Source: Roseiflexaceae bacterium (GTDB lineage Bacteria > Chloroflexota > Chloroflexia > Chloroflexales > Roseiflexaceae). Taken from it: DNA of 64,000 bases. Under the pieces are notes generated by a model. That model had not been told where the DNA came from. It ran no database searches and worked only from the letters and a program-made list of their open reading frames with translations. This document shows, piece after piece, positions 2,385 through 49,323 of this stretch. Location of the stretch: the NCBI GenBank assembly GCA_947474225.1, contig CANJHS010000010.1, forward strand, positions 551-64,550, written 5' to 3'. Made by a program: the position numbers and the translations under genes. Position 1 is the first letter of the stretch; the number at the start of each line of letters is the position of its first letter.

Positions 2385-3758
2385 TTAGCCGCGCAGGGGT
2401 GATCCAACGGCGAGGTATTGGTACCCCTGAGCCACGAGTTCGGCGTAATCAGGGATCATGCGGCGGCCGTCGATGATGAGGTAGGGTTTTTTGGTGTGGA
2501 GTTCGATGGTGCGCGACAGGCCGCGGAACTCTTCCCAGTCTGTAGCAATGACCAACACATCGGTGCCTGCCAAGGCGCTTTTGACCGACTCGTGGTAGCT
2601 CAATTTGGCAAACAACGGGTTCATGCTGGGGTCGAACCAGCGACGCGCCTCGTGCATCGACATGGGGTCGTAGGCGTGGATGGCACTCGCACCACGGCCA
2701 AGCAAGCCCTCGACGACCTTGAGCGCCGACGAATCGCGCATGTCGTTGGTGCGTTGCTTGAATGACAACCCGAGCAGTGCGACGGTTTTGTTGGCAAACG
2801 AAAAGCCGGCTTCGGACTCTGCCCGATCGAGCAGGTACATCTTTTGGTATTCGTTGATGTCGTAGACCGAGCGGAGCAATTGGGCGTCTTGGTTGCGGCT
2901 TTCGAGCTGATAGATGAGCGACTGGACATCTTTGCCGAAGCACGAGCCACCTGCGCCGATGCCGACGTACGAGCCCCACTTCGAGATACGGTTATCGGCG
3001 GTGACGCCACGCTTCAGGTCTTCCATCCGTACATTGGGGAAGGTCTCGCCGATGCGGGCGCCGATGCCGTTCCAAAATGACACATAGGTCAGCAGCAGCG
3101 TATTGGCGATGTATTTGATGGATTCGGCGGTTTCGGGCGTTGTTTCGATGTAGCTGATGCGCACATGATTGACGAACTGTGAGTAGATGCGGCGCAGGAT
3201 GCGGAAGTCTTCGTCGGTGTCGGCACCGACCACGACGCGATCGGGGCGACGTGATTTTTCGACAGCGTCACCCTCGGGCAAAAATTCTGGGTTCGAGGCG
3301 ACACCCACATTGGGGACGTTGTGTTTGGCCAAGGCTTGTTCGAGGGCACGTGCGGTGCCGATGGGTACGGTGCTTTTGTTGATGATGACGACACGCCGTT
3401 GGTCGCTGCGCTTGGCGAGGAGTTGTGCCAAGTAATCTACGGCGTTGAAGTAAAAGCTCAAGTCCGACGACCCATCCGGATTGGGAGGGGTGGGCAAACA
3501 GAGGAATATGGCGTCGGTGCCTTCGAGGATGGGCGTAATTTCGGTGGTGAAGAAGAGGTAGCGATTGAGATTTTCGGCAATCACGGTGGCCAGACCGGGC
3601 TCGTTGATCATGCGTTCTATCTCTTCGGCTTTGCCAGAGGAATAGGCCGCAATGCGCACTTTGTCGATGTCATACGCATAGACTTCGTGCCCGTATTCGG
3701 AGCAGACTGCTGCATGACAAAGACCGACGAACCCTGTACCGACGACGATTATTTTCAT
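2385..3758 (-). CDS. Nucleotide-sugar dehydrogenase (UDP-glucose 6-dehydrogenase family)
   Basis: 457 aa. Has an N-terminal Rossmann motif VVGTGFVG and the catalytic-Cys motif GGSCFGKD. Confidence 0.9.
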   Translation of the reverse strand: MKIIVVGTGFVGLCHAAVCSEYGHEVYAYDIDKVRIAAYSSGKAEEIERMINEPGLATVIAENLNRYLFFTTEITPILEGTDAIFLCLPTPPNPDGSSDLSFYFNAVDYLAQLLAKRSDQRRVVIINKSTVPIGTARALEQALAKHNVPNVGVASNPEFLPEGDAVEKSRRPDRVVVGADTDEDFRILRRIYSQFVNHVRISYIETTPETAESIKYIANTLLLTYVSFWNGIGARIGETFPNVRMEDLKRGVTADNRISKWGSYVGIGAGGSCFGKDVQSLIYQLESRNQDAQLLRSVYDINEYQKMYLLDRAESEAGFSFANKTVALLGLSFKQRTNDMRDSSALKVVEGLLGRGASAIHAYDPMSMHEARRWFDPSMNPLFAKLSYHESVKSALAGTDVLVIATDWEEFRGLSRTIELHTKKPYLIIDGRRMIPDYAELVAQGYQYLAVGSPLRG

Positions 3759-3792
3759 AGTACCTGTTAATCCTTTACCACAGTGAATCGGG

Positions 3793-4878
3793 TTACTTTA
3801 TGGCCAGGATGTCCCGCAGGGCATCGAGGCAGAGCATGTTTTCGGCGGGAGTCCCAAACGAAATGCGCAACACGCCGGGCAAGCCCCAGGCGCCGAGTGC
3901 ATTGATGGCGATACCCCGGGCAGCCAGGGCGGCGACAACGACAGCGTCACTGACACCGGCGGGGAGGGGCACGGCGATGAAGTTGGTCTCGGATGGAAAG
4001 GGCTGTAACCCCAACGCCGTGAGCCGTTCGACGTACAAATCGCGGGCTTCATTGGCTTGGGTACGACTCGCCTCGAGGTGCGCGGTGTCGCTCAGCGCGG
4101 CAATCCCCGCGACGGCAGCGAGCGCGTTGACATCGAAAACGGGGCGGGTTTTGGAGAGGTAATCGAGTACTGCCGGGGCAGCGAGGGCGTACCCCAGCCG
4201 CAACCCTGCCAGGCCGTAGATTTTCGCATACGTACGCAAAACAATCATGTTGGCACGGCCATTGCGGAGTTCGCCGATCATATCTGGGAAGTCTGCGCGG
4301 GTCGCGTATTCGATATAGGCTTCGTCGACCACGATGAGCACATCGTCGGGAACTGCTACCAAAAACTGCTGCATCTCGGCGGCGCCGTTGGTCGAGCCGG
4401 TGGGATTATTGGGGTTGCAGATGAGCACCATGCGCGTTTTTGGGGTGATGGCAGCGGCCATGGCGGCCAAATCGTGGGCACCGTTGCGCAGCGGGATTTT
4501 CTTTTGGGTGGCAGCCATCATGCCGGTGCGCATCACATAGCTGACAAACGTGCCGTCGGCCATGACGACTTCGTCGCCTGGCTCGAGGTAGGCGAGCGCA
4601 ATCAACAGGATGAGTTCGTCGGACCCATTTGCACATAACACCATATCGGCGCTGATGGAAAAGTGTTGTGCCAATGCGCTCCGCAGTGCCGTATTGTTGG
4701 GGTCAGAGTAGCGATGCATGGTGGGGATAGCGGCGGCCGCAGCGGCCATTGCTTTGGGTGAGGGTCCTAACGGGTTTTCATTGGCGGACAAGCGTGCCAC
4801 AACGGTCACTGCTGGTCCTGCTGCGGGGGGTGCACTGCGCATCGAACGGAGCGCAGCAATGGCGGGTTTTTGGCGCAT
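3793..4878 (-). CDS. hisC: Histidinol-phosphate aminotransferase
   Basis: 361 aa. Has the LSANENPLGPSP motif and class II aminotransferase layout. The start could be the internal Met 12 codons downstream. Confidence 0.85.
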   Translation of the reverse strand: MRQKPAIAALRSMRSAPPAAGPAVTVVARLSANENPLGPSPKAMAAAAAAIPTMHRYSDPNNTALRSALAQHFSISADMVLCANGSDELILLIALAYLEPGDEVVMADGTFVSYVMRTGMMAATQKKIPLRNGAHDLAAMAAAITPKTRMVLICNPNNPTGSTNGAAEMQQFLVAVPDDVLIVVDEAYIEYATRADFPDMIGELRNGRANMIVLRTYAKIYGLAGLRLGYALAAPAVLDYLSKTRPVFDVNALAAVAGIAALSDTAHLEASRTQANEARDLYVERLTALGLQPFPSETNFIAVPLPAGVSDAVVVAALAARGIAINALGAWGLPGVLRISFGTPAENMLCLDALRDILAIK

Positions 4879-8560: not shown

Positions 8561-9976
8561 ATGGACTACCACAACCCCCAATGGCAGGCGTCGATGCGCA
8601 TCCGCCTCGACATCAATAACACCCTGCGTAGCGTCGTCGGCAGCCACGGCATCGACGTGGCCGACATCACTGCCATGGCCGCAGCCGCCGGCAAAGCCAT
8701 CGCCGACATCGATGCCAATCGAGCGCAGCTCGGCTGGCCAGACCTACCCGCCCAAGATATCAGCGCCATCCTGGCCGCCGCCCAGAAGGTGATGCATGTC
8801 GAAAACTTCGTCGTGCTGGGTATTGGTGGTTCTGCACTGGGCAATATTGCCGTCCAATCAGCCCTCAATCACCCCTTCTACAACGATCAGCCGCGTGGCA
8901 TACGCACCCATCCGCGCCTGTATGTCATCGACAACTCCGACCCAGATTTGAATGCAGCCCTGATCGAGACACTCGATCCGGCCAGCACGGTCTACAACGT
9001 CATTTCGAAATCGGGTACCACTGCCGAGACGATGTCGTCGTTTTTGGCGGTGCGTGCGCACCTCATCAACACCCTCGGCCCCAATGCCCTCAAAGAACAC
9101 GTCATCGTCACCACCGACCCCAGCAGCGGCTTTATGCGCCAAATCGGTCTGCGTGAAGGCCTGCCGATGCTCGAATTGCCGCCCACGGTGGGCGGCCGCT
9201 TCTCGGTCTTGACCACCGTTGGCCTGCTTTCTGCGGCGGTTACCGGTGTCGACATCCGCGCCCTGCTGTCGGGTGCTGCGTATGGCTACAAAATCGCCTC
9301 CAACCCGGATGTCCTCAAAAACCCCGCCGCATTGGCTGCCATCGTCAATCTGCTGTGCGCCAAACAGGGTCAAAACATGGTTGTCATGATGCCGTATTCG
9401 CACCATCTGCGGCATATTTCGGATTGGTTCGCCCAACTCTGGGCCGAAAGCCTGGGCAAAAAGACCAGCCTCAGCGGCGAGACCGTCAACGTCGGCACCA
9501 CACCAATCCGCGCACTCGGCGCGACCGATCAGCACTCACAGGTGCAACTCTATGTCGAGGGACCATTCGACAAGCTGGTCAACTTCATCGCCGTCGACAC
9601 CTATGCGCAGAGTATGACTATCCCTTCTGCGTATACCGATTTGGAGGGTGTCTCGTACCTGGGCGGTCACACATTTAATGAGCTCATCAACGCCGAGCAA
9701 CAGGCAACGGCCATTGCGCTCAACGACGCCGGTCGCCCCAACATGACCCACACGGTGCCGGCCATCAACGCATTCACCATCGGTCAGCTCTTTATGCTGC
9801 TCGAAATGCAGACGGCGATAGCTGGGGCACTGCTCAATATCAACACCTTCGACCAACCCGGCGTCGAAGCCGGCAAAATCGCCACCTATGCGCTCCTCGG
9901 TCGCGACGGCTTTGCCGAGCGGCGGGCAGCCATAGCAGCCGCACGTGCGCGACGATCCGCGCAATGGGAGGTCTAG
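8561..9976 (+). CDS. pgi: Glucose-6-phosphate isomerase
   Basis: PGI/SIS-domain motifs are present (VVLGIGGSALG, ISKSGTTAET, GGRFSV). ATG 8561 lies after GAGG. The track start at 8444 would overlap the upstream gene. Confidence 0.9.
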   Translation: MDYHNPQWQASMRIRLDINNTLRSVVGSHGIDVADITAMAAAAGKAIADIDANRAQLGWPDLPAQDISAILAAAQKVMHVENFVVLGIGGSALGNIAVQSALNHPFYNDQPRGIRTHPRLYVIDNSDPDLNAALIETLDPASTVYNVISKSGTTAETMSSFLAVRAHLINTLGPNALKEHVIVTTDPSSGFMRQIGLREGLPMLELPPTVGGRFSVLTTVGLLSAAVTGVDIRALLSGAAYGYKIASNPDVLKNPAALAAIVNLLCAKQGQNMVVMMPYSHHLRHISDWFAQLWAESLGKKTSLSGETVNVGTTPIRALGATDQHSQVQLYVEGPFDKLVNFIAVDTYAQSMTIPSAYTDLEGVSYLGGHTFNELINAEQQATAIALNDAGRPNMTHTVPAINAFTIGQLFMLLEMQTAIAGALLNINTFDQPGVEAGKIATYALLGRDGFAERRAAIAAARARRSAQWEV

Positions 9977-30535: not shown

Positions 30536-30694
30536 AACGGGCTAGCAACCATCGGATTGTTGCATGATACGACGCAACATAGTTGGTGTCAATAATCTGC
30601 GCCCAGACGCGTTGTATCCCCTCGATGAATGTTGTACTCTGACGTATACTATACCCATCACCCCCTAGGGGTTTTGCTAAGAAGGATAATCACG

Positions 30695-31288
30695 ATGATT
30701 CAAGTCAACGTCGATAGTGTACGTGTGAGTTTACTCACCCAAAACCGCGTTGTCGTGCTACGCGAGACAGACAGTCGGCGCTATTTGCCCATTTGGATTG
30801 GCCAATTCGAGGCAGATGCAATCTCGTTTGTGCTGCAGAACCTCACCCCCACACGCCCTATGACCCACGACCTGCTCTGCACCGTCTTCCAAGAACTCGA
30901 TGCCGAGATAGTCCACGTGCTCATCAACGATGTCCAAGAGACTACCTTCTACGCACGTATTCTCGTCCAGACTCCGCAACGCTCATTCGAAATAGACGCA
31001 CGCACCAGCGACGCAATTGCCATCGCCCTGCGTGCACACGTGCCGATCTTTGTCGCACCACATGTCTTCGAACAAGCGTCTGTGCCGTTCGACGGCGACG
31101 AACAACAAGAACCACCGCTCTTCAAAGCATCCCCATCCGTCAGCGAAACAGAGCCGGCAGCGACCATAGACGCAGCCAACGCTCCTACCGATGCTCCTGT
31201 CTCTGATGAAACGATGTCGATGTTTCGTGACTTCATCAATTCGCTCGACGAAGACGATGATGCAAAGAAAAACCCACCCAGCGCATAG
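30695..31288 (+). CDS. Bifunctional nuclease (BFN/DUF151) domain protein with an acidic tail
   Basis: VVVLRETDSRRYLPIWIGQFEADAI matches the DUF151 core. ATG 30695 lies after GAAGGA. Confidence 0.8.
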   Translation: MIQVNVDSVRVSLLTQNRVVVLRETDSRRYLPIWIGQFEADAISFVLQNLTPTRPMTHDLLCTVFQELDAEIVHVLINDVQETTFYARILVQTPQRSFEIDARTSDAIAIALRAHVPIFVAPHVFEQASVPFDGDEQQEPPLFKASPSVSETEPAATIDAANAPTDAPVSDETMSMFRDFINSLDEDDDAKKNPPSA

Positions 31289-31336
31289 CAACGCGCTTAC
31301 CCAAAACATCTAATCTGATATGTTTTTACACTCCAA

Positions 31337-31809
31337 TGTGCATAACTTGGGGTGTTTTTGTGGATAACTCACCAAAATGTGGAGAGTTCTGCTCTCCAAC
31401 GCACTTTACGTACCTTCGTAAAATAAAAACAAATGTTCGCCTTGGTTTATCATTGTAGTGCAGCGAAAAACCACTACGACACAGTTCTTTTTTGTGTATA
31501 ACGCGTGTAGAATCCGAGGAGAGTCGGCGAATAACATCTGCTCTTTTTCCGCTTCTCCACAGGTTTTGTGGATAACCGAGCCTTGTACTGGTGGACCATT
31601 CTGCATCGATTGTGGATGACTGTCTGATTGCTTTTTTTCTTGTTGAGTACTGTTGACCGTCATACACAATCTGGCACGAGTGATTTTCGCAGCCTTATGG
31701 GTCAAAACCGCACTTTCTACTTATCCACACCGATTACTATCGGCTGCTATTTCTTCTCTTATTCTCTTTGTTCTTCTTATAGAAAGACGTGCGCATACAA
31801 CGATCCACA
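31337..31809. other. DnaA-box cluster (candidate oriC or DnaA-titration/regulatory region)
   Basis: Perfect boxes lie at 31359-31367 and 31567-31575 (TGTGGATAA) and at 31721-31729 (TTATCCACA). One-mismatch boxes lie at 31337-31345, 31493-31501, 31553-31561 and 31611-31619. Two-mismatch boxes lie at 31660-31668 and 31801-31809. The whole region is a noncoding, AT-rich 640-bp gap. Confidence 0.55.
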
Positions 31810-31930
31810 TTACAGAACATCTCCTGTTTCTCCAAAAGTGCAGATTGTGGTACACTACATGCAGTAAGTTATGCATTGTTGCGCCTCGACCTCGGAGGTC
31901 GTGGCGTTTGTATGTTGTGTGGGAGCAAGC

Positions 31931-33769
31931 ATGAAGCGAACAGAATTGCGCAATGTGGCTATTATTGCGCACGTTGACCACGGCAAAACGACCCTCGTAG
32001 ATGGTTTATTACGCCAATCCCGTATCTTCCGAGATAATCAGCAGATGACCGAGCGCGTCATGGACTCGAATGATCTCGAGCGCGAGCGCGGCATCACCAT
32101 CATGGCCAAAAATACCGCCGTGATGTACAAAGGCAACAAAATCAACATCGTCGACACCCCAGGTCACGCAGACTTTGGCGGTGAAGTCGAACGTGTAATG
32201 AACATGGTAGACGGCGTGTTGTTGCTCGTCGATGCTGTCGATGGCCCGATGCCACAAACACGCTTCGTGCTGCGCAAAGCACTCCAGGCTGGTCACAAGG
32301 CGATTGTGGTGGTCAACAAAATTGACCGACCAAATGCGCGACCACAGTGGGTCGTCAACGAAACATTCGACCTGTTCGTCGAGTTGGGTGCAACAGACGA
32401 GCAAGCAGAATTCCATACTGTTTTTTCGAGTGCAATCAATGGTATCGCAGGCACAGACTTCAACAATCTGAGTGATTCACTTGAGCCATTGTTCGACGCC
32501 ATCATCAACCACATCCCCGCACCAGACGTCGATCCAGATGCACCGCTGCAAATGTTGGTTACCAATACGTTCTACGACGACTACCGCGGCAAAATCATGA
32601 TGGGCCGCGTCCGTCGTGGTTCGTTGACCAAGGGTATGTCGGTCATCAAGTTTGACCACGAAGGCGAGATGAAGCCTTCGAAGATCGTCCAGATCTTCCA
32701 ATACGTCGGGTTGAATCGTGCCGAAGTCGAAGAAGCCACCGCTGGCGACATCATCGCCATTGCCGGTATTGCCGATGGCATGATCGGCGACACCATTGCC
32801 GATGCCACCAATCCCGAGCAGCTTCCGGTGCTGGCCGTCGAAGAGCCAACCGTTAACATGACGTTCGGTGTCAACACCAGCCCATTCGCCGGTCGTGAAG
32901 GCCAGCACGTGACCTCGCGCAAGATTCGCGACCGCTTATACGCCGAGCGCGAGCGCGACGTTGCATTGCGTGTCGAAGACACCGATGTCCCTGATGCCTT
33001 CACGGTATCTGGTCGCGGTGAATTGCATTTGACTATTCTGATCGAAAATATGCGCCGTGAAGGGTATGAATTCCAGGTTTCGAAGCCTGAAGTTATCTTC
33101 CGTGTTATCGACGAGCAGCGGATGGAGCCTATCGAACAGGTCGAAATCGAAGTCTCGGAGCAATACCAAGGTGCAGTTATCGAATTGCTCGGGCAGCGCC
33201 GCGGTATCATGCGCGATATGCGCTACCGCGAAGACGGGACCGTCAGCCTGACATTCCTTGTGCCTACCCGCGGTTTGCTCGGCTTCCGCCAGCAACTGCT
33301 CACCGCCAGCCGCGGTGAAGGGCAAATGAATTCGTTGTTCTACGAATACCAGCCTGTAGCCGGTGATATCAGCACGCGTTCCAATGGTTCGTTGGTTGCG
33401 TCAGAGTCCGGTCAAACGACGACCTTTGGGTTGTTCGGCTCGCAGGAGCGCGGGCAGTTGTTCATTGGCGCCGGCGTCGATATCTACGAAGGTATGGTCA
33501 TCGGTATGCACGCCCGTGAGCGCGACCTCGAAGTCAACTGCTGCAAAAAGAAGCACCTTACCAACATGCGTTCGTCTGGTGCCGACGATGCACAACGCCT
33601 CGAGACCCCACGTAACATGAGCTTGGATGATGCAGTCGAATACATCGGCGACGATGAATTGCTCGAAATCACCCCCAAGAACTATCGCTTGCGCAAGAAA
33701 TTGCTCAATCAAGAAGAGCGTAAACGCGATCAAAAACGCCGCGAAATGTCTTTGATGACAAACGGCTAA
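31931..33769 (+). CDS. typA: Translational GTPase TypA/BipA
   Basis: [20 protein letters not shown]1 motif, with the full BipA layout. ATG 31931 lies after GGGAG. Confidence 0.95.
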
Positions 33770-40947: not shown

Positions 40948-40960
40948 TGCTTCTCTTTGC

Positions 40961-40990
40961 TGCAGGGTATCACGCTTGTGGTACCCTGCA
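40961..40990 (+). terminator. Possible terminator after the aldehyde dehydrogenase gene
   Basis: TGCAGGGTA-N12-TACCCTGCA followed by CTTTATGTTTTTTG. Confidence 0.45.
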
Positions 40991-41514
40991 CTTTATGTTT
41001 TTTGTATCATTTTTCGTTGTAGAGCTGATACAGTTTGTTCTTTTCCGATGCGGTACTATCAAGAATGTATACAAGTATTAATGGGTGTCTTTTGCATACG
41101 CAATAGCAATATGTTTTGCATGCTGGTATCTGATAACGTGCATTATTGAATGTGTCTGGCGATGTACCATGTTTTTAGGATATATTGAATCTGTTTTATA
41201 TTATTTGGCTTTCTAATGGGATTTGTTGACTGTAATAGAATATATTTATGGTATTTAATCAATATTATTGTGTGAATGTACACAAAATATATACGTAATT
41301 TCAATTTTGATTATTAAAAAATAAAAAAACATCATTTTCTTTAAAATTTTACGTTGTATGATTACATACATTCACCAATAGATTTTGTGTATGTGTATAG
41401 TATTTCTTCAAAAAGACGGCATCGTAATTTTTATGTATTTGAAAGCACACACCGTTCATAGAGACAAAGTGTACGGTTTTGGGGATTGCTATCCATAAGA
41501 GTTATGTATCACGA

Positions 41515-41597
41515 ATTGAGTATCTCATGGAGCAAAATTGAGAGGATTGACGACGTATTGAGTTCTCATGGAGCAAAATTGAGAGGATTGACGACGT
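41515..41597. repeat. Tandem direct repeat, 42 nt + 41 nt (one indel), iteron-like
   Basis: ATTGAGTATCTCATGGAGCAAAATTGAGAGGATTGACGACGT is followed by ATTGAGTTCTCATGGAGCAAAATTGAGAGGATTGACGACGT. Confidence 0.9.
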
Positions 41598-41872
41598 ATC
41601 TTGATATTTGCGAAAAAAATTTTGGAGTACGTGTATTTTTCTTGCAGTTTCCATACCGTGAGTTTGGAATGAGGAATGTATTTGCATGGCGTATTGTAGG
41701 CTGAGGTCGAGATCTGTTACGATACACAGCAGGTCTGTGTTGCGGGATGTTTATTGTTTTCATGTGTTGTATCGCCGACTGGTGTTGTTTAATGTTTAGA
41801 AATCTTTTGTTTTTGAAATTCTTGCGTTCATGTCCTTAATTTTTACATATTTTAAAATAGACCAAAATATCC

Positions 41873-41901
41873 TTGACATTATGAGCAAAATGAGATATAT
41901 T
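41873..41901 (+). promoter_or_regulatory. Near-consensus sigma-70-type promoter for hup
   Basis: TTGACA (41873-41878), a 17-nt spacer, then TATATT (41896-41901), 36 nt upstream of the hup ATG. Confidence 0.6.
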
Positions 41902-41936
41902 TTTATATGGTTGTGAACGAACGGAAAGTAGAAACA

Positions 41937-42209
41937 ATGCAGAAGACAGATTTCGTCAAAGCAGTAGCTGAGAAGGCTCAGATGTCCCAGAAGGACACCA
42001 AGGAAATCATTGACGCAGCGTTGGAAGTCATTGCGCAGCAGCTCAAGGGCGGCGAAAAGGTTACTCTTACCGGATTCGGTACCTTTGAAGTACGTCAGCG
42101 CCAGGCCCGCGAAGGGGTCAACCCACAGACCGGCGCAAAAATCAAGATTCCAGCCACCAAGACCCCAGGCTTCAGCGCAAGCAGCACCCTGAAGGCACAG
42201 GTCAAGTAA
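41937..42209 (+). CDS. hup: Nucleoid-associated DNA-binding protein HU
   Basis: 90 aa. MQKTDFVKAVAEKAQMSQKDTKEIIDA ... GFGTFEVRQRQAREGVNPQTG matches the HU/IHF fold. The track start at 41907 adds 10 non-family residues. Confidence 0.9.
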   Translation: MQKTDFVKAVAEKAQMSQKDTKEIIDAALEVIAQQLKGGEKVTLTGFGTFEVRQRQAREGVNPQTGAKIKIPATKTPGFSASSTLKAQVK

Positions 42210-42270: not shown

Positions 42271-45200
42271 TTACGGGATTTTGGAATTCAGATAATCTGC
42301 GAGTTGCTGATAGAGTGCAACGGTTTCGGTTGGGAGTTGCTGCGAGGTAGCAAGTGACACAAGGTTTTTTGCTTGAATTGAAGCATTCTGGTACTCAAGA
42401 CCGTTGCTCAACACAATGGTGTAGTTTTGGAGTGCCTCGATACTTTCGGGTTGGATAGCAACGAGTTGACCAAAGGCTGCAATTGCTTCTGGATAATTTC
42501 GTTCACGACTTGCAATCAAGCCAAGGATAGACAAGAGTAAGCGATCGTTTTGATAGGGTGTTGCCAGATAGGCGGTGCGGAGCTGCTGGAGCAACACCGG
42601 GGTGCCGACGAGTTGATCAACGATGGTTGAAATCTGACCATCGAGTGCGTGCGGCTCTTTTTGGATAATGCCAGCATAGAGTGGCATTGCCTCGCTGTAG
42701 CGCCCATCGGCATAGGTCAGGTCTGCAATGCGTATTGCCGTATCAGGGTAGGTTGGATCGAGGAGTTGTGAACGCTCTAGGGCAGCATGTGCTTTTTCTC
42801 TGAAACGTTTGGCTTCGTCTGGATTTGTGTCGCGTAGTCGATTGGCACGTGTAATAAGCGCACCGATGTATTCATTCAAAATGCTGACGTCGTTGGGAGC
42901 ATTGGCTACGCCCTTTTCGAACCATGTGGTGATGGCTGTTTCTGCCGCTGGTGTTTGTTCGACACGGGTATACCAGAATGTATAGAGGCGAGCAAGATTG
43001 GCAAAGTGGTCTTTGTTGTACGGATTGAGGTCGTGTGCAGTCAGCAGAGCCTGCTCGGCAAGGTGGATAATGTCACGCGTCGAGCGCGGTTCGAGATAAT
43101 CTTTGATGTCGAGTGCTGATTGTTGGGCAATGAGTGTAGGCAGTGTTGTATCGATGGATTCAATTTTGTTCCCACCGATCCGCCGTTTTGCATCCGCCAA
43201 ATTCAGTAATGAACGCCCTGCGCTCAGATAGTAATAATCCTGGTTGGGTTCCATCCGTATCGCATCGAGGAAGTACGAGAGACCGATGATTTGTTGGTCG
43301 GTATTGCCGGAGCTTGTTGCTGCTTCGGCATAGCTGCTCCCTTGTTGGAAGCGCATGTCGGCCAGTGCGTTATCGATGTTGAACGACCATGCGGCCAAAC
43401 CGCCAGAGATGACAATTGCAGCGTAGAGAATGTAGTGGATGAATGCTGGTTGGGGTACAGAGACAACGGCGCGTTGTGGTGTTGCCTGGGGACGTCTACG
43501 GCCAGTTTGGTTCGGCTTGGTCGTCGGTGTGACGATCGGTTCTGCGACTGTTGGTTGTTCGAAGGGGACGACTGGTTCTTTCGACAGTCGTGCAATAGCG
43601 AGCAACGCGCCGATAGATAACCATTGCATCATCAGTGTCGTAACCACGGGGATACCCGTCAGTCCCTCCACATTGTGTGCAACGATCGCACTCATGGCAG
43701 CGATGACAAAGAATCGATAGGGTGCAATTGTTGGTCTTTTGAGTAATGCAAAACCATACAGCACAGCGCTGATAATTAACGCAATGTAGCTGAAGAGACC
43801 AAGTAGGCCCTTATTGACGAGTTCGTCGAGGAAGGCTTGGTGCGATCGGTCGGGCGATGCGCTCCGAGATTCGATGTGTGCCAGGGATGGTGGGTAGAAC
43901 GTGTTGTACGCAACGAACATACTTTCTGGGCCCCAGCCGATGACGGTGCGGAGAGGATCTGATGTAATCAGACCAATGGTGCCTTTGCCGAATTCATCGC
44001 CAAACCAGATTTTCATCCGGACGTCACCAGTCGTGCCAGCACTCACATCAAACAATTTGCCCATACGACCAATATATGGGACGGTGCGTAACTGTACAAA
44101 AAGGGATGATGTGCTGAAATTGAGGAGCAGCAGAAAAACCACAACCAAACCCACGATACTGCATTCTGCAATAAAGAGTCGTGCTGCGATACGCGAATAC
44201 ATCCCGCCGCGGCGGCGTATGTCGAGTAAGTTCGTCGTGATAAAGAAAAACAATCCGACCGCGCCACCAATCCATGGGCCGCGACTTTGGGTGAAGAATA
44301 CGGTGACCAAACTCGCACACGCAAAGGCGATACTCGCCCAGCCAGCGAATGCGAAGTAACGATTGTGTGTAACCGCAGATACTTTTTGTACTACTGGTAC
44401 CACAAACGCTACCCACAGTAAGAGCGCCGCGGCGAGAAGCCAGAGGAGCCAATGTTCCCCGAATTGACCGTCGGTCGGCAAGACGACTTTGACATCGGTA
44501 CTCGGCTGCGCACTCACCATCAATGCGATGGTGTACACGGATGTCAGGGCTGCGGCAATACTGCGGCGTAAAAGGTGTGTCGCCGGTGGGGAAAGCAGCT
44601 CGATATAGGCTATTGCAGCGATGAGAATCGCACCAGGATAGACCCACCAGAAGCGCAGATCGATGGAACGCACGACGCCACTAAACTGGATGGCTGCAAA
44701 TACAAGAGCAAACACACCGATAATCGTAGAGACACCTGCAACGAACACAGGCAGCGACAATGGTTTGGTTTGTTGGTCGATAGGTTGCCGTGATTGGCGG
44801 ATGAGCGTCAGTCCGTATGCGATTGCGTACGGGATGATCAAAATAAGGAAGGCAGCGATAAAAATGGAATTGCCCATCGTCGATGCGACGCGGGTAATGA
44901 CGTCGCCCTTCCACGGTAGTGGATCTGTCTGGAAATGTTGCACATACCCATAGAATGTCGGCACGATCGCTGACAAGATAACCATAGCAACCGTACGCCA
45001 GAGTTGCGCTGGTGTCCGTGTATGTGTCACGATAATCAGTGCGAGTGCTACGTACGAAAGATTTGTGTAGGTACCTTGTAGCCGTTGATACGAACCCCAA
45101 AATGACAGCCCGGGTACGATCGATGTCATGGTCGCAAAAACAAAAATCACACAGTATGCAACGATGCTGTAACTGAGTACCGTATTTTGGAGAGAAAAAA

Positions 45201-45458: not shown

Positions 45459-47210
45459 TTATTGAGGCAGTGCTTTGCGTTCACGCGCGTAGACAAGCAT
45501 GTCTGCAGCGACAGAGCGACTCTGTGCACTGACAGGGTGACCATTGAGCATAGCTGCGAGTTCGTCGATACGTGCAGGTTGATCGAGTGCTGTCACGTGT
45601 GTCGTGGTCCGATCTGCACTGATTTTTTTGCTGATAGCGTAGTGTGTGTCTGCGAAGGTTGCGACTTGTGGCAAATGGGAGATACATAGAACTTGATGGT
45701 GACGGCTGATCTGCCAGAGCTTCTCGCCGACGACTGCACCAGCGCGGCCACCGACCCCGGTGTCCACTTCGTCAAAGACCATTGTCTCGATTATTTCGAC
45801 CTGCGCAAGGACGGACTTGATCGCCAAGAACAGACGTGACCCTTCGCCGCCCGAGGCGGTTTTGGCCAGAGATTTGGGTTCTTCACCGGGATTGGGGGCA
45901 ATCATAAATTCGACATGGTCGATGCCGGTTTTATCGCACGCGAGTGTTGCAAGAGAGCTGTCTGACTGCTGTACGATTACGCCATCAAATGCCTTGGTTT
46001 GCGTCTGGTGCACCATAAAACGGACATGCGGCATTGCCAAATCGCGTGCTGATGCTTCGACGGCTTGTGCGAGTTTGGCTGCGGCGCTGACGCGATGTTG
46101 AGAAAGCACGTTCGCTGCGGTTCCTAATTGACTACGCATACGTTGTTCTTGTTGTTCGAGTGCTGCGACGTATTCATCGCTGTGTTCGAGTTTTTCGAGT
46201 TCTGTTGCGGCAGTTGTTGCGCGCTCGATGAGCTCGGGAATGGTTGCACGATATTTGCGCTGGAGTGCACGCAGCTCGGTTATGCGGTCCTCGATCGCCT
46301 CGATGCGGCCCGGGTCGAATTCAATACGATCGCGGTAGGCGCGGACTGCCTGGGCGAGGTCGGTTAGTGCGTACTGGAGTTCGGTTGCTTGGGTAACGAT
46401 TGCTTCGATTGATGAGTCGTACTTTTGCAGGTCCGCACACAGTTGGGCGACTACCACGCTCGAATCGACGAGGCCACGGGGGCGGCGATCATCGCCATTC
46501 AATGATTGATAAATCTGGGTGGTTAACTCGGTGATACGCGCACCGTTCTGGAAGCGTGTACGCTCCGCAGTGAGTGCTTCTTCTTCGCCAGGGATGAGTT
46601 TGGCCGCGTTGACATCTTTTTGCAGTGCGCGCAATTCTTGGATGCGTTCGGTGCGGCGGGATGCTGCAGTGCGCAGGTCGTTGAGCTCGTTGCGGAGCGC
46701 CTTCCATTGTGCATGGAGTTCGGACACTTTCTGCCGAGTAGGGAATAACTTGCCAAATCGATCCAACATATCAAGGTGGGTTTTTGCGTTGAAGATTGTC
46801 AGACCATCGTGTTGGCCATGGATATCTATCAGCCAGCTGCCTATCTCGCGCAGGATGGTATTGGTGACCGCACGACCATTGATGCGGCTGACCGTACGAT
46901 TGCTCTCGCGATTGACCTCGCGGAAAATAATGATGTTGTCGTCGCCTTCCTCGCGGAGGCCATGCTCGTCGAGGAGTGCAATGAAGTCGGGATTCGGTTT
47001 GACTTGGAAGACGCCTTCGATGCGCGAACGATCCATGCCGTTCCGTATGTGACTCGCGTCGAATCGGTCGCCACGCAAAATCCCCAACGCATCGATGATC
47101 ATCGACTTACCAGCACCTGTCTCGCCACTGAGTACGGAGAAGCCGTTGTTGAACGATAGGGTCACTTGGTCGATAATCGCAAAATTACCGATATGTAATT
47201 CTAAGAGCAT
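45459..47210 (-). CDS. recN: DNA repair protein RecN
   Basis: 583 aa. Has MLLELHIGNFAIID, Walker A GETGAGKS, a coiled-coil middle and a C-terminal MVFDEVDTGVGG motif. Confidence 0.95.
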   Translation of the reverse strand: MLLELHIGNFAIIDQVTLSFNNGFSVLSGETGAGKSMIIDALGILRGDRFDASHIRNGMDRSRIEGVFQVKPNPDFIALLDEHGLREEGDDNIIIFREVNRESNRTVSRINGRAVTNTILREIGSWLIDIHGQHDGLTIFNAKTHLDMLDRFGKLFPTRQKVSELHAQWKALRNELNDLRTAASRRTERIQELRALQKDVNAAKLIPGEEEALTAERTRFQNGARITELTTQIYQSLNGDDRRPRGLVDSSVVVAQLCADLQKYDSSIEAIVTQATELQYALTDLAQAVRAYRDRIEFDPGRIEAIEDRITELRALQRKYRATIPELIERATTAATELEKLEHSDEYVAALEQQEQRMRSQLGTAANVLSQHRVSAAAKLAQAVEASARDLAMPHVRFMVHQTQTKAFDGVIVQQSDSSLATLACDKTGIDHVEFMIAPNPGEEPKSLAKTASGGEGSRLFLAIKSVLAQVEIIETMVFDEVDTGVGGRAGAVVGEKLWQISRHHQVLCISHLPQVATFADTHYAISKKISADRTTTHVTALDQPARIDELAAMLNGHPVSAQSRSVAADMLVYARERKALPQ

Positions 47211-47263: not shown

Positions 47264-48220
47264 TCATTTTGTAAATACTTCGAGGAACTCTTGGAGCTTC
47301 TCGGGACTATGGAAAACAAATGTCAGCCGTACATCACGAGGACTCCGCTGGATTTGGACGGGAGTGCCGACATGTACCTCGAGTTCGCGGGCAACGGCAC
47401 GATCGTCCGCACTGGTTGTATTCTGCGGCTCTTGTTCGGTTAAGGTTGCAGTCGGTACTTTGGGTCGAATAGGTGTTGGTTTGCCACCGCTTGCCGTGAT
47501 GCCACGGATCTTTTGGAGCGAACTCACCGCTTCTGCCACAGAGTCGAATGTACTATCACTCAGCAGTTCGGCCTCTCGCACCGTCACCGTATCGTGTTGA
47601 ATGACTTGCAGAAGCATGTTCTGCTTGCCTGGTTCATTAATTTTGAGCAGCGTCCGTCCGTGTCCAGCACTTATTGCACCACCACGTAGCGCGGTTTGGG
47701 CGTCTTCGGTAAGGCGGAGCAGGCGCCGGGTGTTGGTTATATGCACACGGCTGGTGCGACCCATCCGGACGGCAATTTCTTCATCGCTGAGCTGGAATTC
47801 GTCTTTGAGCGCTTGGTATGCGAGTGCTTCTTCTATGGGGTTGAGATCTGCGCGTTGGACGTTCTCGATGATTGCTATTTCGAGCATCTCTTGCGGCGTG
47901 CTTTCGCGGATGATGACGGGCACAGTCTCGAACCCTGCCATCCCGGCCGCGCGCAGTCGCCGTTCACCGGCGATGAGTTCGTACCCGCCGCTGGGGAGTC
48001 GGGTGACAATCAGTGGTTGTACCACACCGTGTTCTTTGATCGAAGCCGACAAATCAGCGATTTGTTGGTCATCAAAGGTTTTGCGGGGCTGGTAGCGATT
48101 GGGACGCACATCGCCGATTGCGATCTCGCGGATTGACAGATTATTTGATGGTGTCCCCACGGATGCACTGGGTAACAGTGCATCGAGGCCACTCCCGAGA
48201 CCGCCGCGTCGCTTGCTCAT
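47264..48220 (-). CDS. parB: Chromosome partitioning protein ParB/Spo0J
   Basis: 318 aa. Has RGGLGSGLDALL, PRKTFD, GVVQPLIV, IAGERRLRAA and HTH motifs. Confidence 0.9.
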   Translation of the reverse strand: MSKRRGGLGSGLDALLPSASVGTPSNNLSIREIAIGDVRPNRYQPRKTFDDQQIADLSASIKEHGVVQPLIVTRLPSGGYELIAGERRLRAAGMAGFETVPVIIRESTPQEMLEIAIIENVQRADLNPIEEALAYQALKDEFQLSDEEIAVRMGRTSRVHITNTRRLLRLTEDAQTALRGGAISAGHGRTLLKINEPGKQNMLLQVIQHDTVTVREAELLSDSTFDSVAEAVSSLQKIRGITASGGKPTPIRPKVPTATLTEQEPQNTTSADDRAVARELEVHVGTPVQIQRSPRDVRLTFVFHSPEKLQEFLEVFTK

Positions 48221-48224
48221 AGTA

Positions 48225-49034
48225 TTAGCCCTTCACGTTCATGCGGACGATTAAATCTTCGGCTACGCGTTGGTACGCGCTGGTGGCGCGACCTTCGGGA
48301 TCGTATTCATACAACATCTGACCATAGCTCGGTGCTTCGCTGGCGCGCACGCTGCGTGGGATAGGTGTGTTGCAGATATGCACTGGGAAGAAACGTCGTA
48401 CTTCGTCTACGACTTGTTGGGCTAAATTTGTGCGACCATCGTACATGGTCATTACTACGCCGAGAATCGAAAGCTTTGGATTGAGGCTCTGATGCACTCG
48501 ATCGATGATGTTTTTGAGTTGAGCGAGACCTTCGAGGGCCAAGAACTCACACTGCAATGGAATACAAACCGTGTTTGCCGCAGCCAGTGCATTCACTGAC
48601 ACAAACCCCAACGCCGGAGGACAATCCAACATGATGACATCGTACTGGCTGCGAATCGGAGCAATTGCTTCGGCGAGTCGAAATTCGCGTCGCTCTATGT
48701 CGACCAACTCGACTTGTACACCTGATAATCGTTCGCTAGCCGCAATGAGATCAAAGTTTGGCCGGTTTGTCGGAATGATAGCAGCCGTAATTGGTTGCGT
48801 CCCCATGATGACTTCGTAGGTTGTATTGACGAGATTCTGTTTACTCACGCCCAGGCTTGTTGCAGCATTCCCTTGTGCATCACAGTCGATAAGCAGCACG
48901 CGTAGATTGCTCCGTGCAAATTCTCCACAGAGATTCACTGCGGATGTTGTCTTACCGACACCGCCTTTTTGGTTCATACAGGCGATGATGATGCCTGCAC
49001 GTGGTGCTTCGTTTGGCTTTTGCTGTACGGTCAC
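48225..49034 (-). CDS. parA: Chromosome partitioning ATPase ParA/Soj
   Basis: Has the deviant Walker A NQKGGVGKTT. GTG 49034 lies 6 nt after AGGAG. The track's 344-aa version (start 49259) would translate through a parS site. Confidence 0.85.
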   Translation of the reverse strand: MTVQQKPNEAPRAGIIIACMNQKGGVGKTTSAVNLCGEFARSNLRVLLIDCDAQGNAATSLGVSKQNLVNTTYEVIMGTQPITAAIIPTNRPNFDLIAASERLSGVQVELVDIERREFRLAEAIAPIRSQYDVIMLDCPPALGFVSVNALAAANTVCIPLQCEFLALEGLAQLKNIIDRVHQSLNPKLSILGVVMTMYDGRTNLAQQVVDEVRRFFPVHICNTPIPRSVRASEAPSYGQMLYEYDPEGRATSAYQRVAEDLIVRMNVKG

Positions 49035-49242
49035 TGGGTTCTCCTGCTGCACAGATTGGTATGCGCATACTATACCGTTTGAGACATGGAAAAAGGTACG
49101 GGGGGATAAAATGTTGTATTTGAGATTGTACTGTATTTCGTGATGATTGTCTTTGTTCAACCCTCTTCGGCGCGGCACAACTACTATGCTGTCATTGGGC
49201 TGTAACGCTCGGTGGGAGGATAATGACAAAAGTGATGCAAAC

Positions 49243-49258
49243 TGTTTCACGTGAAACA
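49243..49258. other. parS centromere-like site (perfect consensus palindrome)
   Basis: TGTTTCACGTGAAACA. Confidence 0.9.
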
Positions 49259-49307
49259 TTGAGATCAGAATTCTCCGATGATTTCGGCGGTAAATCTACA
49301 CAGGGAA

Positions 49308-49323
49308 TGTTTCACGTGAAACA
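49308..49323. other. parS centromere-like site (perfect consensus palindrome)
   Basis: TGTTTCACGTGAAACA, 65 bp from the first copy. Confidence 0.9.

Follow-up and report, generated by a model that had tools for sequence, protein, structure and literature searches.

The locus is a 642-bp intergenic gap (31289-31930) in the window, by which we mean the whole 64-kb stretch of DNA that was analysed. A BFN-domain gene (30629-31288, + strand) lies on the left of the gap, and typA, with its ATG at 31931, lies on the right. Gene calling in an independently assembled version of this sequence left the gap empty. A small gene was rejected as a candidate, because the small ORFs of the gap were uncalled in the independent assembly and the indels in the alignment do not come in threes. 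An RNA element was also rejected, since the gap gave no Rfam match at the gathering threshold or at E<=1 and no tRNA. From left to right, the flanks and the gap contain the following features.

30629-31288, + strand: bifunctional-nuclease-domain (BFN_dom) gene, the left flank (Pfam BFN_dom)
31289-31930, no strand: intergenic region with the candidate oriC (about 31320-31790) and the typA promoter and leader (ORFs, Pfam and box statistics)
31337-31345, - strand: DnaA box TTATGCACA, one mismatch, box 1 of the left array; invariant in the 8 closest relatives
31359-31367, - strand: perfect DnaA box, box 2 of the left array; invariant in close relatives
31378-31386, - strand: weak DnaA box CTCTCCACA, two mismatches, position 3 of the left array; TGTGGA core invariant
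31493-31501, - strand: DnaA box TTATACACA, one mismatch; partly conserved
31553-31575, no strand: head-to-head pair of TTCTCCACA (+ strand, 31553-31561) and a perfect box (- strand, 31567-31575), separated by a 5-nt spacer
31611-31619, - strand: DnaA box TCATCCACA, one mismatch; core conserved
31660-31668, + strand: weak DnaA box TCATACACA, two mismatches; T.CACA core invariant in close relatives
31721-31729, + strand: perfect DnaA box, the anchor of the box-plus-trio module, facing the putative unwinding site
31730-31743, no strand: 14-nt spacer CCGATTACTATCGG, a small palindrome, leading from the box to the trios
31744-31788, + strand: DnaA-trio-like tract and putative DNA unwinding element, with a T/C-rich continuation
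31801-31809, + strand: two-mismatch box CGATCCACA; not conserved in close relatives, and probably non-functional
31848-31856, + strand: probable typA promoter, extended -10 element TGgTACACT; GTGGTACACT invariant in 15 relatives
31882-31906, + strand: GC-rich hairpin in the typA leader, followed by a U-rich stretch; conserved in 15 relatives
31931-33769, + strand: typA/bipA, the right flank (Pfam GTP_EFTU and BipA_C)

The DnaA boxes form a significant cluster in intergenic DNA, as is expected of an oriC. The 64-kb window contains three perfect TTATCCACA boxes, all of them inside the BFN-typA gap; shuffling of the window gave an expectation of 0.39, and three were reached in 0 of 100 shuffles. 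Allowing one mismatch, 7 of the 15 boxes in the window fall inside 393 bp of the gap, where about 0.07 are expected at the window-wide rate. Allowing two mismatches, 12 sites were found in 540 bp of the gap versus about 1.3 expected. The first-pass annotation had described this cluster, and all of its coordinates and sequences were reproduced on recheck: the three perfect boxes, which are the sole perfect ones in the window; the one-mismatch boxes at 31337, 31493, 31553 and 31611; the two-mismatch boxes at 31660 and 31801; the inverted pair 31553/31567 with its 5-nt spacer; and the T7 run (31632-31638) and the A/T tract (31419-31434). Two further two-mismatch sites beyond its list, at 31378 and 31828, also lie in the gap. 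Elsewhere in the window, a minor secondary cluster of three - strand boxes with one mismatch each (42488, 42660 and 43062; window 42488-43070) was observed within the 3' TPR-coding part of a gene encoding a 1049-aa Wzy_C/TPR protein.

The boxes of the left array start 22 bp apart (31337 to 31359) and 19 bp apart (31359 to 31378), and the weak box at 31378-31386 lies within a 7-bp hairpin-like inverted repeat. The A/T tract lies between this array and the leftward box at 31493-31501, whose extended flank TTTTTGTG.ATAAC is shared with other leftward boxes; the flank common to the leftward boxes reads TTTTGTG.ATAAC. Farther to the right, the boxes at 31611 and 31660-31668 together form an inverted repeat.

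A box-plus-trio module was found at one edge of the cluster. The published search for origin unwinding modules requires three or more 3'-NAN-5' triplets that come after a DnaA box at a distance of no more than 16 bp (PMC8287927). The consensus of the DnaA-trio is 3'-GAT-5', the spacer length peaks at 10-13 bp, and the examples tabulated in the supplement are oriented as 5'-TTATCCACA, spacer and 5'-CTA... (PMC8287927). In the window, the first trio starts 14 nt after the perfect rightward box at 31721-31729. The tract from 31744 reads CTG CTA TTT CTT CTC TTA TTC, that is, seven in-phase NTN triplets (lower strand, 3'-GAC GAT AAA GAA GAG AAT AAG-5'). Box and trios have the same orientation as the tabulated examples (PMC8287927), with the triplets on the side and strand that the search rule specifies. 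Only 9 NTN runs of at least seven triplets occur on both strands of the window (128 kb), two of them in the tract 31744-31788, and 0.16% of positions have such a run starting within 16 nt downstream. Within the gap, duplex stability is lowest at 31747-31788, with -32.1 kcal/mol per 30-mer versus a window-wide 99th percentile of -34.0; an oriC is expected to have such a low-stability element flanking its box cluster on one side. The T/C-rich tract, which had been proposed as an unwinding element, is thus the least stable DNA of the gap and carries trio-like triplets directly after a correctly oriented box, suggesting that it may well serve in this role.

The order and spacing of these elements are conserved upstream of typA in related genomes. 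The closest TypA, with 98% identity, is encoded by the freshwater genome "Chloroflexi bacterium Tous12m-chloro-G3", and TypA proteins with 81-97% identity were found in about 20 other species-level metagenome-assembled genomes, many of which are labelled Roseiflexaceae. In these relatives (TypA identity at least 81%, about 20 at species level), the 900 bp upstream of typA contain 4-11 boxes that deviate from the consensus at no more than one position; L010, with only two, is the exception. The number of perfect boxes differs between sub-lineages, from 1 to 5. At the far end of the gap, the relatives have two to three leftward boxes that follow each other at 20-22 bp, and nearly all box-carrying relatives have the head-to-head pair with an identical 14-bp start-to-start distance. 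The sequence (A/T)TATCCACA is kept at the place of the anchor box in all box-carrying relatives, and the anchor box is followed, after 10-16 nt, by CT(A/G) CTG (CTA) TTT CTT ATA and then by clearly AT-rich DNA. In the sub-lineage of the window, the tract after the trios is T/C-rich and not strongly AT-rich. Several lineages have a second box upstream of the anchor box at an 8-nt offset, TT(A/T)TCAACA-TATCCACA; this upstream partner is degenerate in the window, with 4 mismatches. In the alignment of the 8 closest sequences, which has a mean column identity of 76%, the boxes, trios and promoter stand out as invariant islands.

The first-pass annotation had named typA upstream regions lacking boxes in relatives as evidence that would speak against an origin; the relatives do carry boxes, and the element is conserved at the orthologous place in related genomes, as is expected of an oriC. 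In the more distant Chloroflexota L015 and L016 (TypA identity 71-72%), typA has different neighbours and no boxes upstream, and the non-Chloroflexota typA loci have no upstream boxes. A metagenome scan with the pattern TATCCACA-N10-17-CTRTTTCTT, which was too loose, returned 120 stretches, only 3 of which had at least four boxes nearby; dnaA, dnaN, the BFN gene and a close typA homologue were found in none, with one weak match of 31%. Some of the relatives carry unexpected record titles. L007, L009, L017 and L020 (TypA identity 83-86%, identical origin architecture) were deposited as "uncultured Klebsiella sp.", and the titles "Singulisphaera sp." (L010) and "Thermoflexus hugenholtzii" (L018) also occur. 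These records look like mislabelled metagenome-assembled genomes of the Chloroflexota lineage.

The cluster coincides with a switch in strand asymmetry, as is expected of an oriC, in local data from the window and 16 relatives. Plotted over the 64 kb of the window, cumulative GC skew forms a V whose local minimum is at 32944. At third codon positions, a coding-strand effect and a position effect are both present, and in a model with strand as a covariate, a left/right switch gains 90-103 log-likelihood units. The model locates this switch in the window only to about 29-46 kb, with the best change point at 33.8 kb, and a change point at 41.6 kb fits about as well as one at 31.6 kb. Since the change point in the window cannot separate these two positions, we considered the AT-rich noncoding region 40948-41906 as the true origin. 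It was rejected because it has no box with one mismatch or fewer and because, in the relatives, the stretch from typA to this region already has a clearly positive skew. This region, about 960 bp of noncoding DNA of very low G+C upstream of the HU gene (41907-42209), gave no Rfam match. Two copies of a direct repeat of 36 nt, TCTCATGGAGCAAAATTGAGAGGATTGACGACGTAT, lie within it, at 41523-41558 and 41564-41599.

The relatives were analysed over local spans of about 22 kb each. In 10 box-carrying relatives, the skew minimum within +/-10 kb lies 530-1033 bp upstream of the typA ATG (L009, -90), and in 6 more it lies within 2.2 kb, so that it falls in or near the gap in 16 in total. Left-hand skew typically ranges from -0.05 to -0.10, right-hand skew from +0.08 to +0.14. 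The box-less typA loci L015, L016, L023, L024 and L026 showed no skew switch. In 6 relatives, genes on the + strand and genes on the - strand both change skew sign across the gap; therefore, gene orientation does not explain the switch. The polarity, from negative to positive, is that expected of an origin and not of a terminus. A skew minimum mapping elsewhere had likewise been named as counter-evidence, and in these local data the minimum coincides with the box cluster. The leftmost 6 kb of the window have a positive skew, opposite to the trend. There, the UDP-glucose dehydrogenase and aminotransferase genes (2385-4878, - strand) deviate from the left-arm trend with a third-position GC skew of +0.32 to +0.43; an inversion in the past, strong codon bias or recent acquisition of the genes could be the cause.

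Conservation and skew also bear on whether the locus is a relic or secondary origin, that is, a former oriC left after a rearrangement, with replication now starting elsewhere. Such a history would be consistent with a gene context unlike that predicted for the cultivated relatives, and with the range of one to five perfect boxes across sub-lineages. However, the boxes and trios appear to be under purifying selection across lineages in which the intervening sequence has diverged. In addition, third-position skew, which decays after a change in fork direction, still switches in all box-carrying lineages. We therefore consider a relic extremely improbable, and favor an oriC that is in use.

Genes and sites typical of chromosome maintenance are located to the right of the cluster, as follows.

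41907-42209, + strand: HU (Pfam)
45459-47210, - strand: RecN (Pfam)
47264-48220, - strand: ParB (Pfam)
48225-49259, - strand: ParA (Pfam)
49243-49323, no strand: two perfect parS sites (49243-49258 and 49308-49323) at the head of parA-parB

Thus, parAB and its pair of perfect parS sites are located about 17.5 kb from the cluster, with hup and recN in between, in line with the first description of the stretch. Sites of the parS type are typically origin-proximal. The pair marks an origin-proximal region, and its distance of 17.5 kb agrees with the origin polarity of the skew. The two sites are 65 bp apart. At its 5' end, the longest parA frame (48225-49259) runs into the first of them, and the true start codon of parA is therefore probably located further downstream.

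The cluster is not adjacent to dnaA or dnaN, an adjacency that is usual for an oriC and does not define it. Pfam analysis of all sizeable ORFs of the window revealed no DnaA or beta-clamp domains. The window, which comprises nearly all of a 64,375-bp metagenome contig, gave no tblastn match to DnaA of B. subtilis or DnaN of E. coli, queries that were validated with Pfam at 1e-81 and 1e-49; neither did the 10 kb by which a contig from another sample (L037) extends it to the left, nor the DNA within 10 kb of typA in the relatives. Neither dnaA nor dnaN was found, then, within about -40/+32 kb of the cluster. With approximate query sequences, rpmH and rnpA gave no match in the window either. The Pfam and tblastn results agree with the earlier statement that dnaA, dnaN, rpmH and rnpA are not in the window, for rpmH and rnpA by way of the approximate queries. 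Bacterial origins usually adjoin dnaA, and origins distant from dnaA are also stated by the Ori-Finder authors (PMC10225481).

The separation from dnaA and dnaN is what would be seen if the cluster were a DnaA-titrating or DnaA-recycling locus like E. coli datA/DARS, which would control the pool of active DnaA while the true origin lies elsewhere, for example beside dnaA. The skew evidence is local, and the DoriC-predicted origins of cultivated Roseiflexus and Chloroflexus lie at the start of the genome numbering; both are compatible with such a locus. In contrast, a titrating or recycling function leaves unexplained the change of skew sign, which co-occurs with the boxes and is lacking at box-less typA loci, the conserved and correctly oriented succession of box, trios and low-stability DNA, and the nearby parS/parAB. 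Furthermore, datA and DARS were defined in enterobacteria, and we know of no established equivalent in Chloroflexota. A locus of this kind is therefore very unlikely, and we favor the chromosomal origin.

The right end of the gap contains the predicted typA promoter and the typA leader. A simple sigma-70 scan found no promoter in the gap, and the promoter is assigned from the invariant TGgTACACT only. This predicted promoter lies about 60-100 bp downstream of the putative unwinding site and reads away from it. The typA leader (31846-31930) comprises, in order, the -10 element, the invariant hairpin, UUUGUAUGUU and a ribosome-binding site. The 3' arm of the hairpin is kept even in the distant L015 and L016; neither covariation nor an Rfam family was found for it. 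The hairpin (31882-31906) is outside the origin, and the leader could be an attenuator or a protein-binding leader. In eight relatives (L013, L014, L017, L020, L022, L030, L032 and L011), two leftward boxes (TGTG.ATAACCCGTGGACTATGTGGATGAA) are located directly upstream of the typA promoter. Outside L011, these promoter-abutting boxes of sister lineages lie at -143/-123 from the typA ATG, and the sub-lineage of the window has none. In L011, the two-box unit is duplicated (about 100 bp, at approximately 9640-9770).

The boxes might instead serve mainly in the control of transcription of typA, of the BFN-nuclease gene, or of both. The predicted typA promoter is at most 100 bp from the cluster, and the boxes at -143 and -123 abut it in several relatives, as would be expected of an operator. 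Yet at least 10 boxes over about 450 bp, mostly more than 200 bp from the promoter, exceed what an operator needs, and the promoter-proximal boxes are the ones that are missing from the sub-lineage of the window. Regulation would neither create a skew switch nor require trios. We regard promoter control as the main function of the boxes as highly improbable; regulation of typA could coexist with origin function, and would not replace it.

Taken together, the box, trio, skew and conservation evidence indicates that the region of about 31320-31790 is very probably the chromosomal oriC of an uncultured freshwater Chloroflexota lineage with relatives recorded as Roseiflexaceae. A chromosomal origin outside the dnaA-dnaN context was also the leading reading of the first-pass annotation, and it is the one that this sequence-based evidence favors. 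It is almost certainly an ordinary DnaA-dependent origin, in a gene context that is unusual yet has precedent. We infer the following course of initiation from the arrangement of the elements. DnaA would bind the double-stranded boxes, namely the left array, with its boxes about two helical turns apart, the head-to-head pair and the further single boxes, and this binding would raise the local concentration of DnaA. DnaA at the rightward box 31721-31729 would nucleate an oligomer that extends onto the triplets of the lower strand. The oligomer would then open the low-stability T/C-rich tract 31744-31788, where the helicase would be loaded, and forks departing both ways would give rise to the GC-skew switch. 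Transcription of gidA has been proposed to aid opening at E. coli oriC. By analogy, the typA promoter, firing away from the opening site, may assist through negative supercoiling.

The origin of this clade would thus be separated from dnaA and dnaN and physically joined to the promoter of typA, which encodes a ribosome-associated GTPase. The putative opening site lies about 60-100 bp behind the promoter, and boxes abut the promoter in sister lineages; therefore, replication initiation and typA expression could influence each other. We put such an interaction forward tentatively, as possible and rather unlikely. Our literature search found no paper combining typA with oriC and DnaA boxes, and the supplements of Ori-Finder 2022 contain no mention of Chloroflexi, typA or bipA. 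Other bacteria are already known to have origins at a distance from dnaA, the elements described here are canonical, and the locus reveals no new mechanism.

An origin annotation for this abundant uncultured freshwater lineage aids the ordering of contigs and analyses of strand bias, and it serves coverage-based estimates of growth rate, since peak-to-trough methods need an origin. The locus also offers a clean box-plus-trio module that is conserved family-wide, in a phylum with weak published predictions. Furthermore, as an indicator gene for predicting origins, dnaA performs poorly in this clade.

By convention, the start of genome numbering is the dnaA region. The DoriC-predicted origins of Chloroflexia comprise those of Roseiflexus sp. 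RS-1, R. castenholzii, Chloroflexus aggregans and Herpetosiphon aurantiacus (PMC8287927, supplementary file 3). These predictions lie at 112-140, 5723277..6, 18-38 and 6346006-6346041, where the genome numbering starts or ends, and the tabulated modules are weak, with 3-5 trios (PMC8287927). In Cfl. aurantiacus, dnaA is Caur_0001 (PMC3150298). The locus described here resembles these predictions in being based on DnaA boxes with a box-plus-trio candidate, in the same phylum and nominally the same family. It differs from them in that the candidate origin adjoins typA, dnaA was not found within tens of kb, and the module has seven trios. The gene context of the origin appears to differ from that of the cultivated relatives.

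E. coli datA and DARS1/2 are non-origin DnaA-box clusters that modulate the nucleotide state of DnaA in an IHF-dependent manner and do not fire. Like the typA gap, they are intergenic, rich in DnaA boxes and distant from dnaA. In contrast to the gap, they neither coincide with a skew switch nor carry a module of box, trios and unwinding element, and these two features of the gap speak for firing.

In E. coli, oriC has gidA/mnmG and mioC as its neighbours and is separated from dnaA by about 40 kb. The candidate origin resembles it in being unlinked to dnaA, in having an R1-type box that faces the putative unwinding element, and in having, by the unwinding end, the promoter of a flanking gene that reads away from the origin. 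Unlike E. coli oriC, the typA gap lacks GATC clusters, 13-mer repeats and recognisable IHF/Fis sites. It is flanked by the BFN-nuclease gene and typA, and its boxes are arranged as a left array with 20-22 bp spacing plus a head-to-head pair.

The closest likeness in the module itself is to the basal unwinding system of Bacillus subtilis incC, which consists of DnaA-box 6/7, DnaA-trios and an AT-rich element (Richardson 2016; PMC6669920; PMC8287927). The typA locus differs from B. subtilis in that it is not between dnaA and dnaN and shows no sign of a bipartite origin flanking dnaA, and in that the sub-lineage of the window has a degenerate upstream tandem partner and a T/C-rich putative unwinding tract. 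As in the basal unwinding system, in-phase triplets that read 3'-GAT/GAC/AAA/GAA-5' on the lower strand begin 11-14 nt past a rightward 5'-TTATCCACA box and lead into low-stability DNA, and additional boxes upstream may deliver DnaA. In the relatives, the anchor box is the second of two boxes with an 8-nt offset, as in the entry for Bacillus cereus in the table of PMC8287927.
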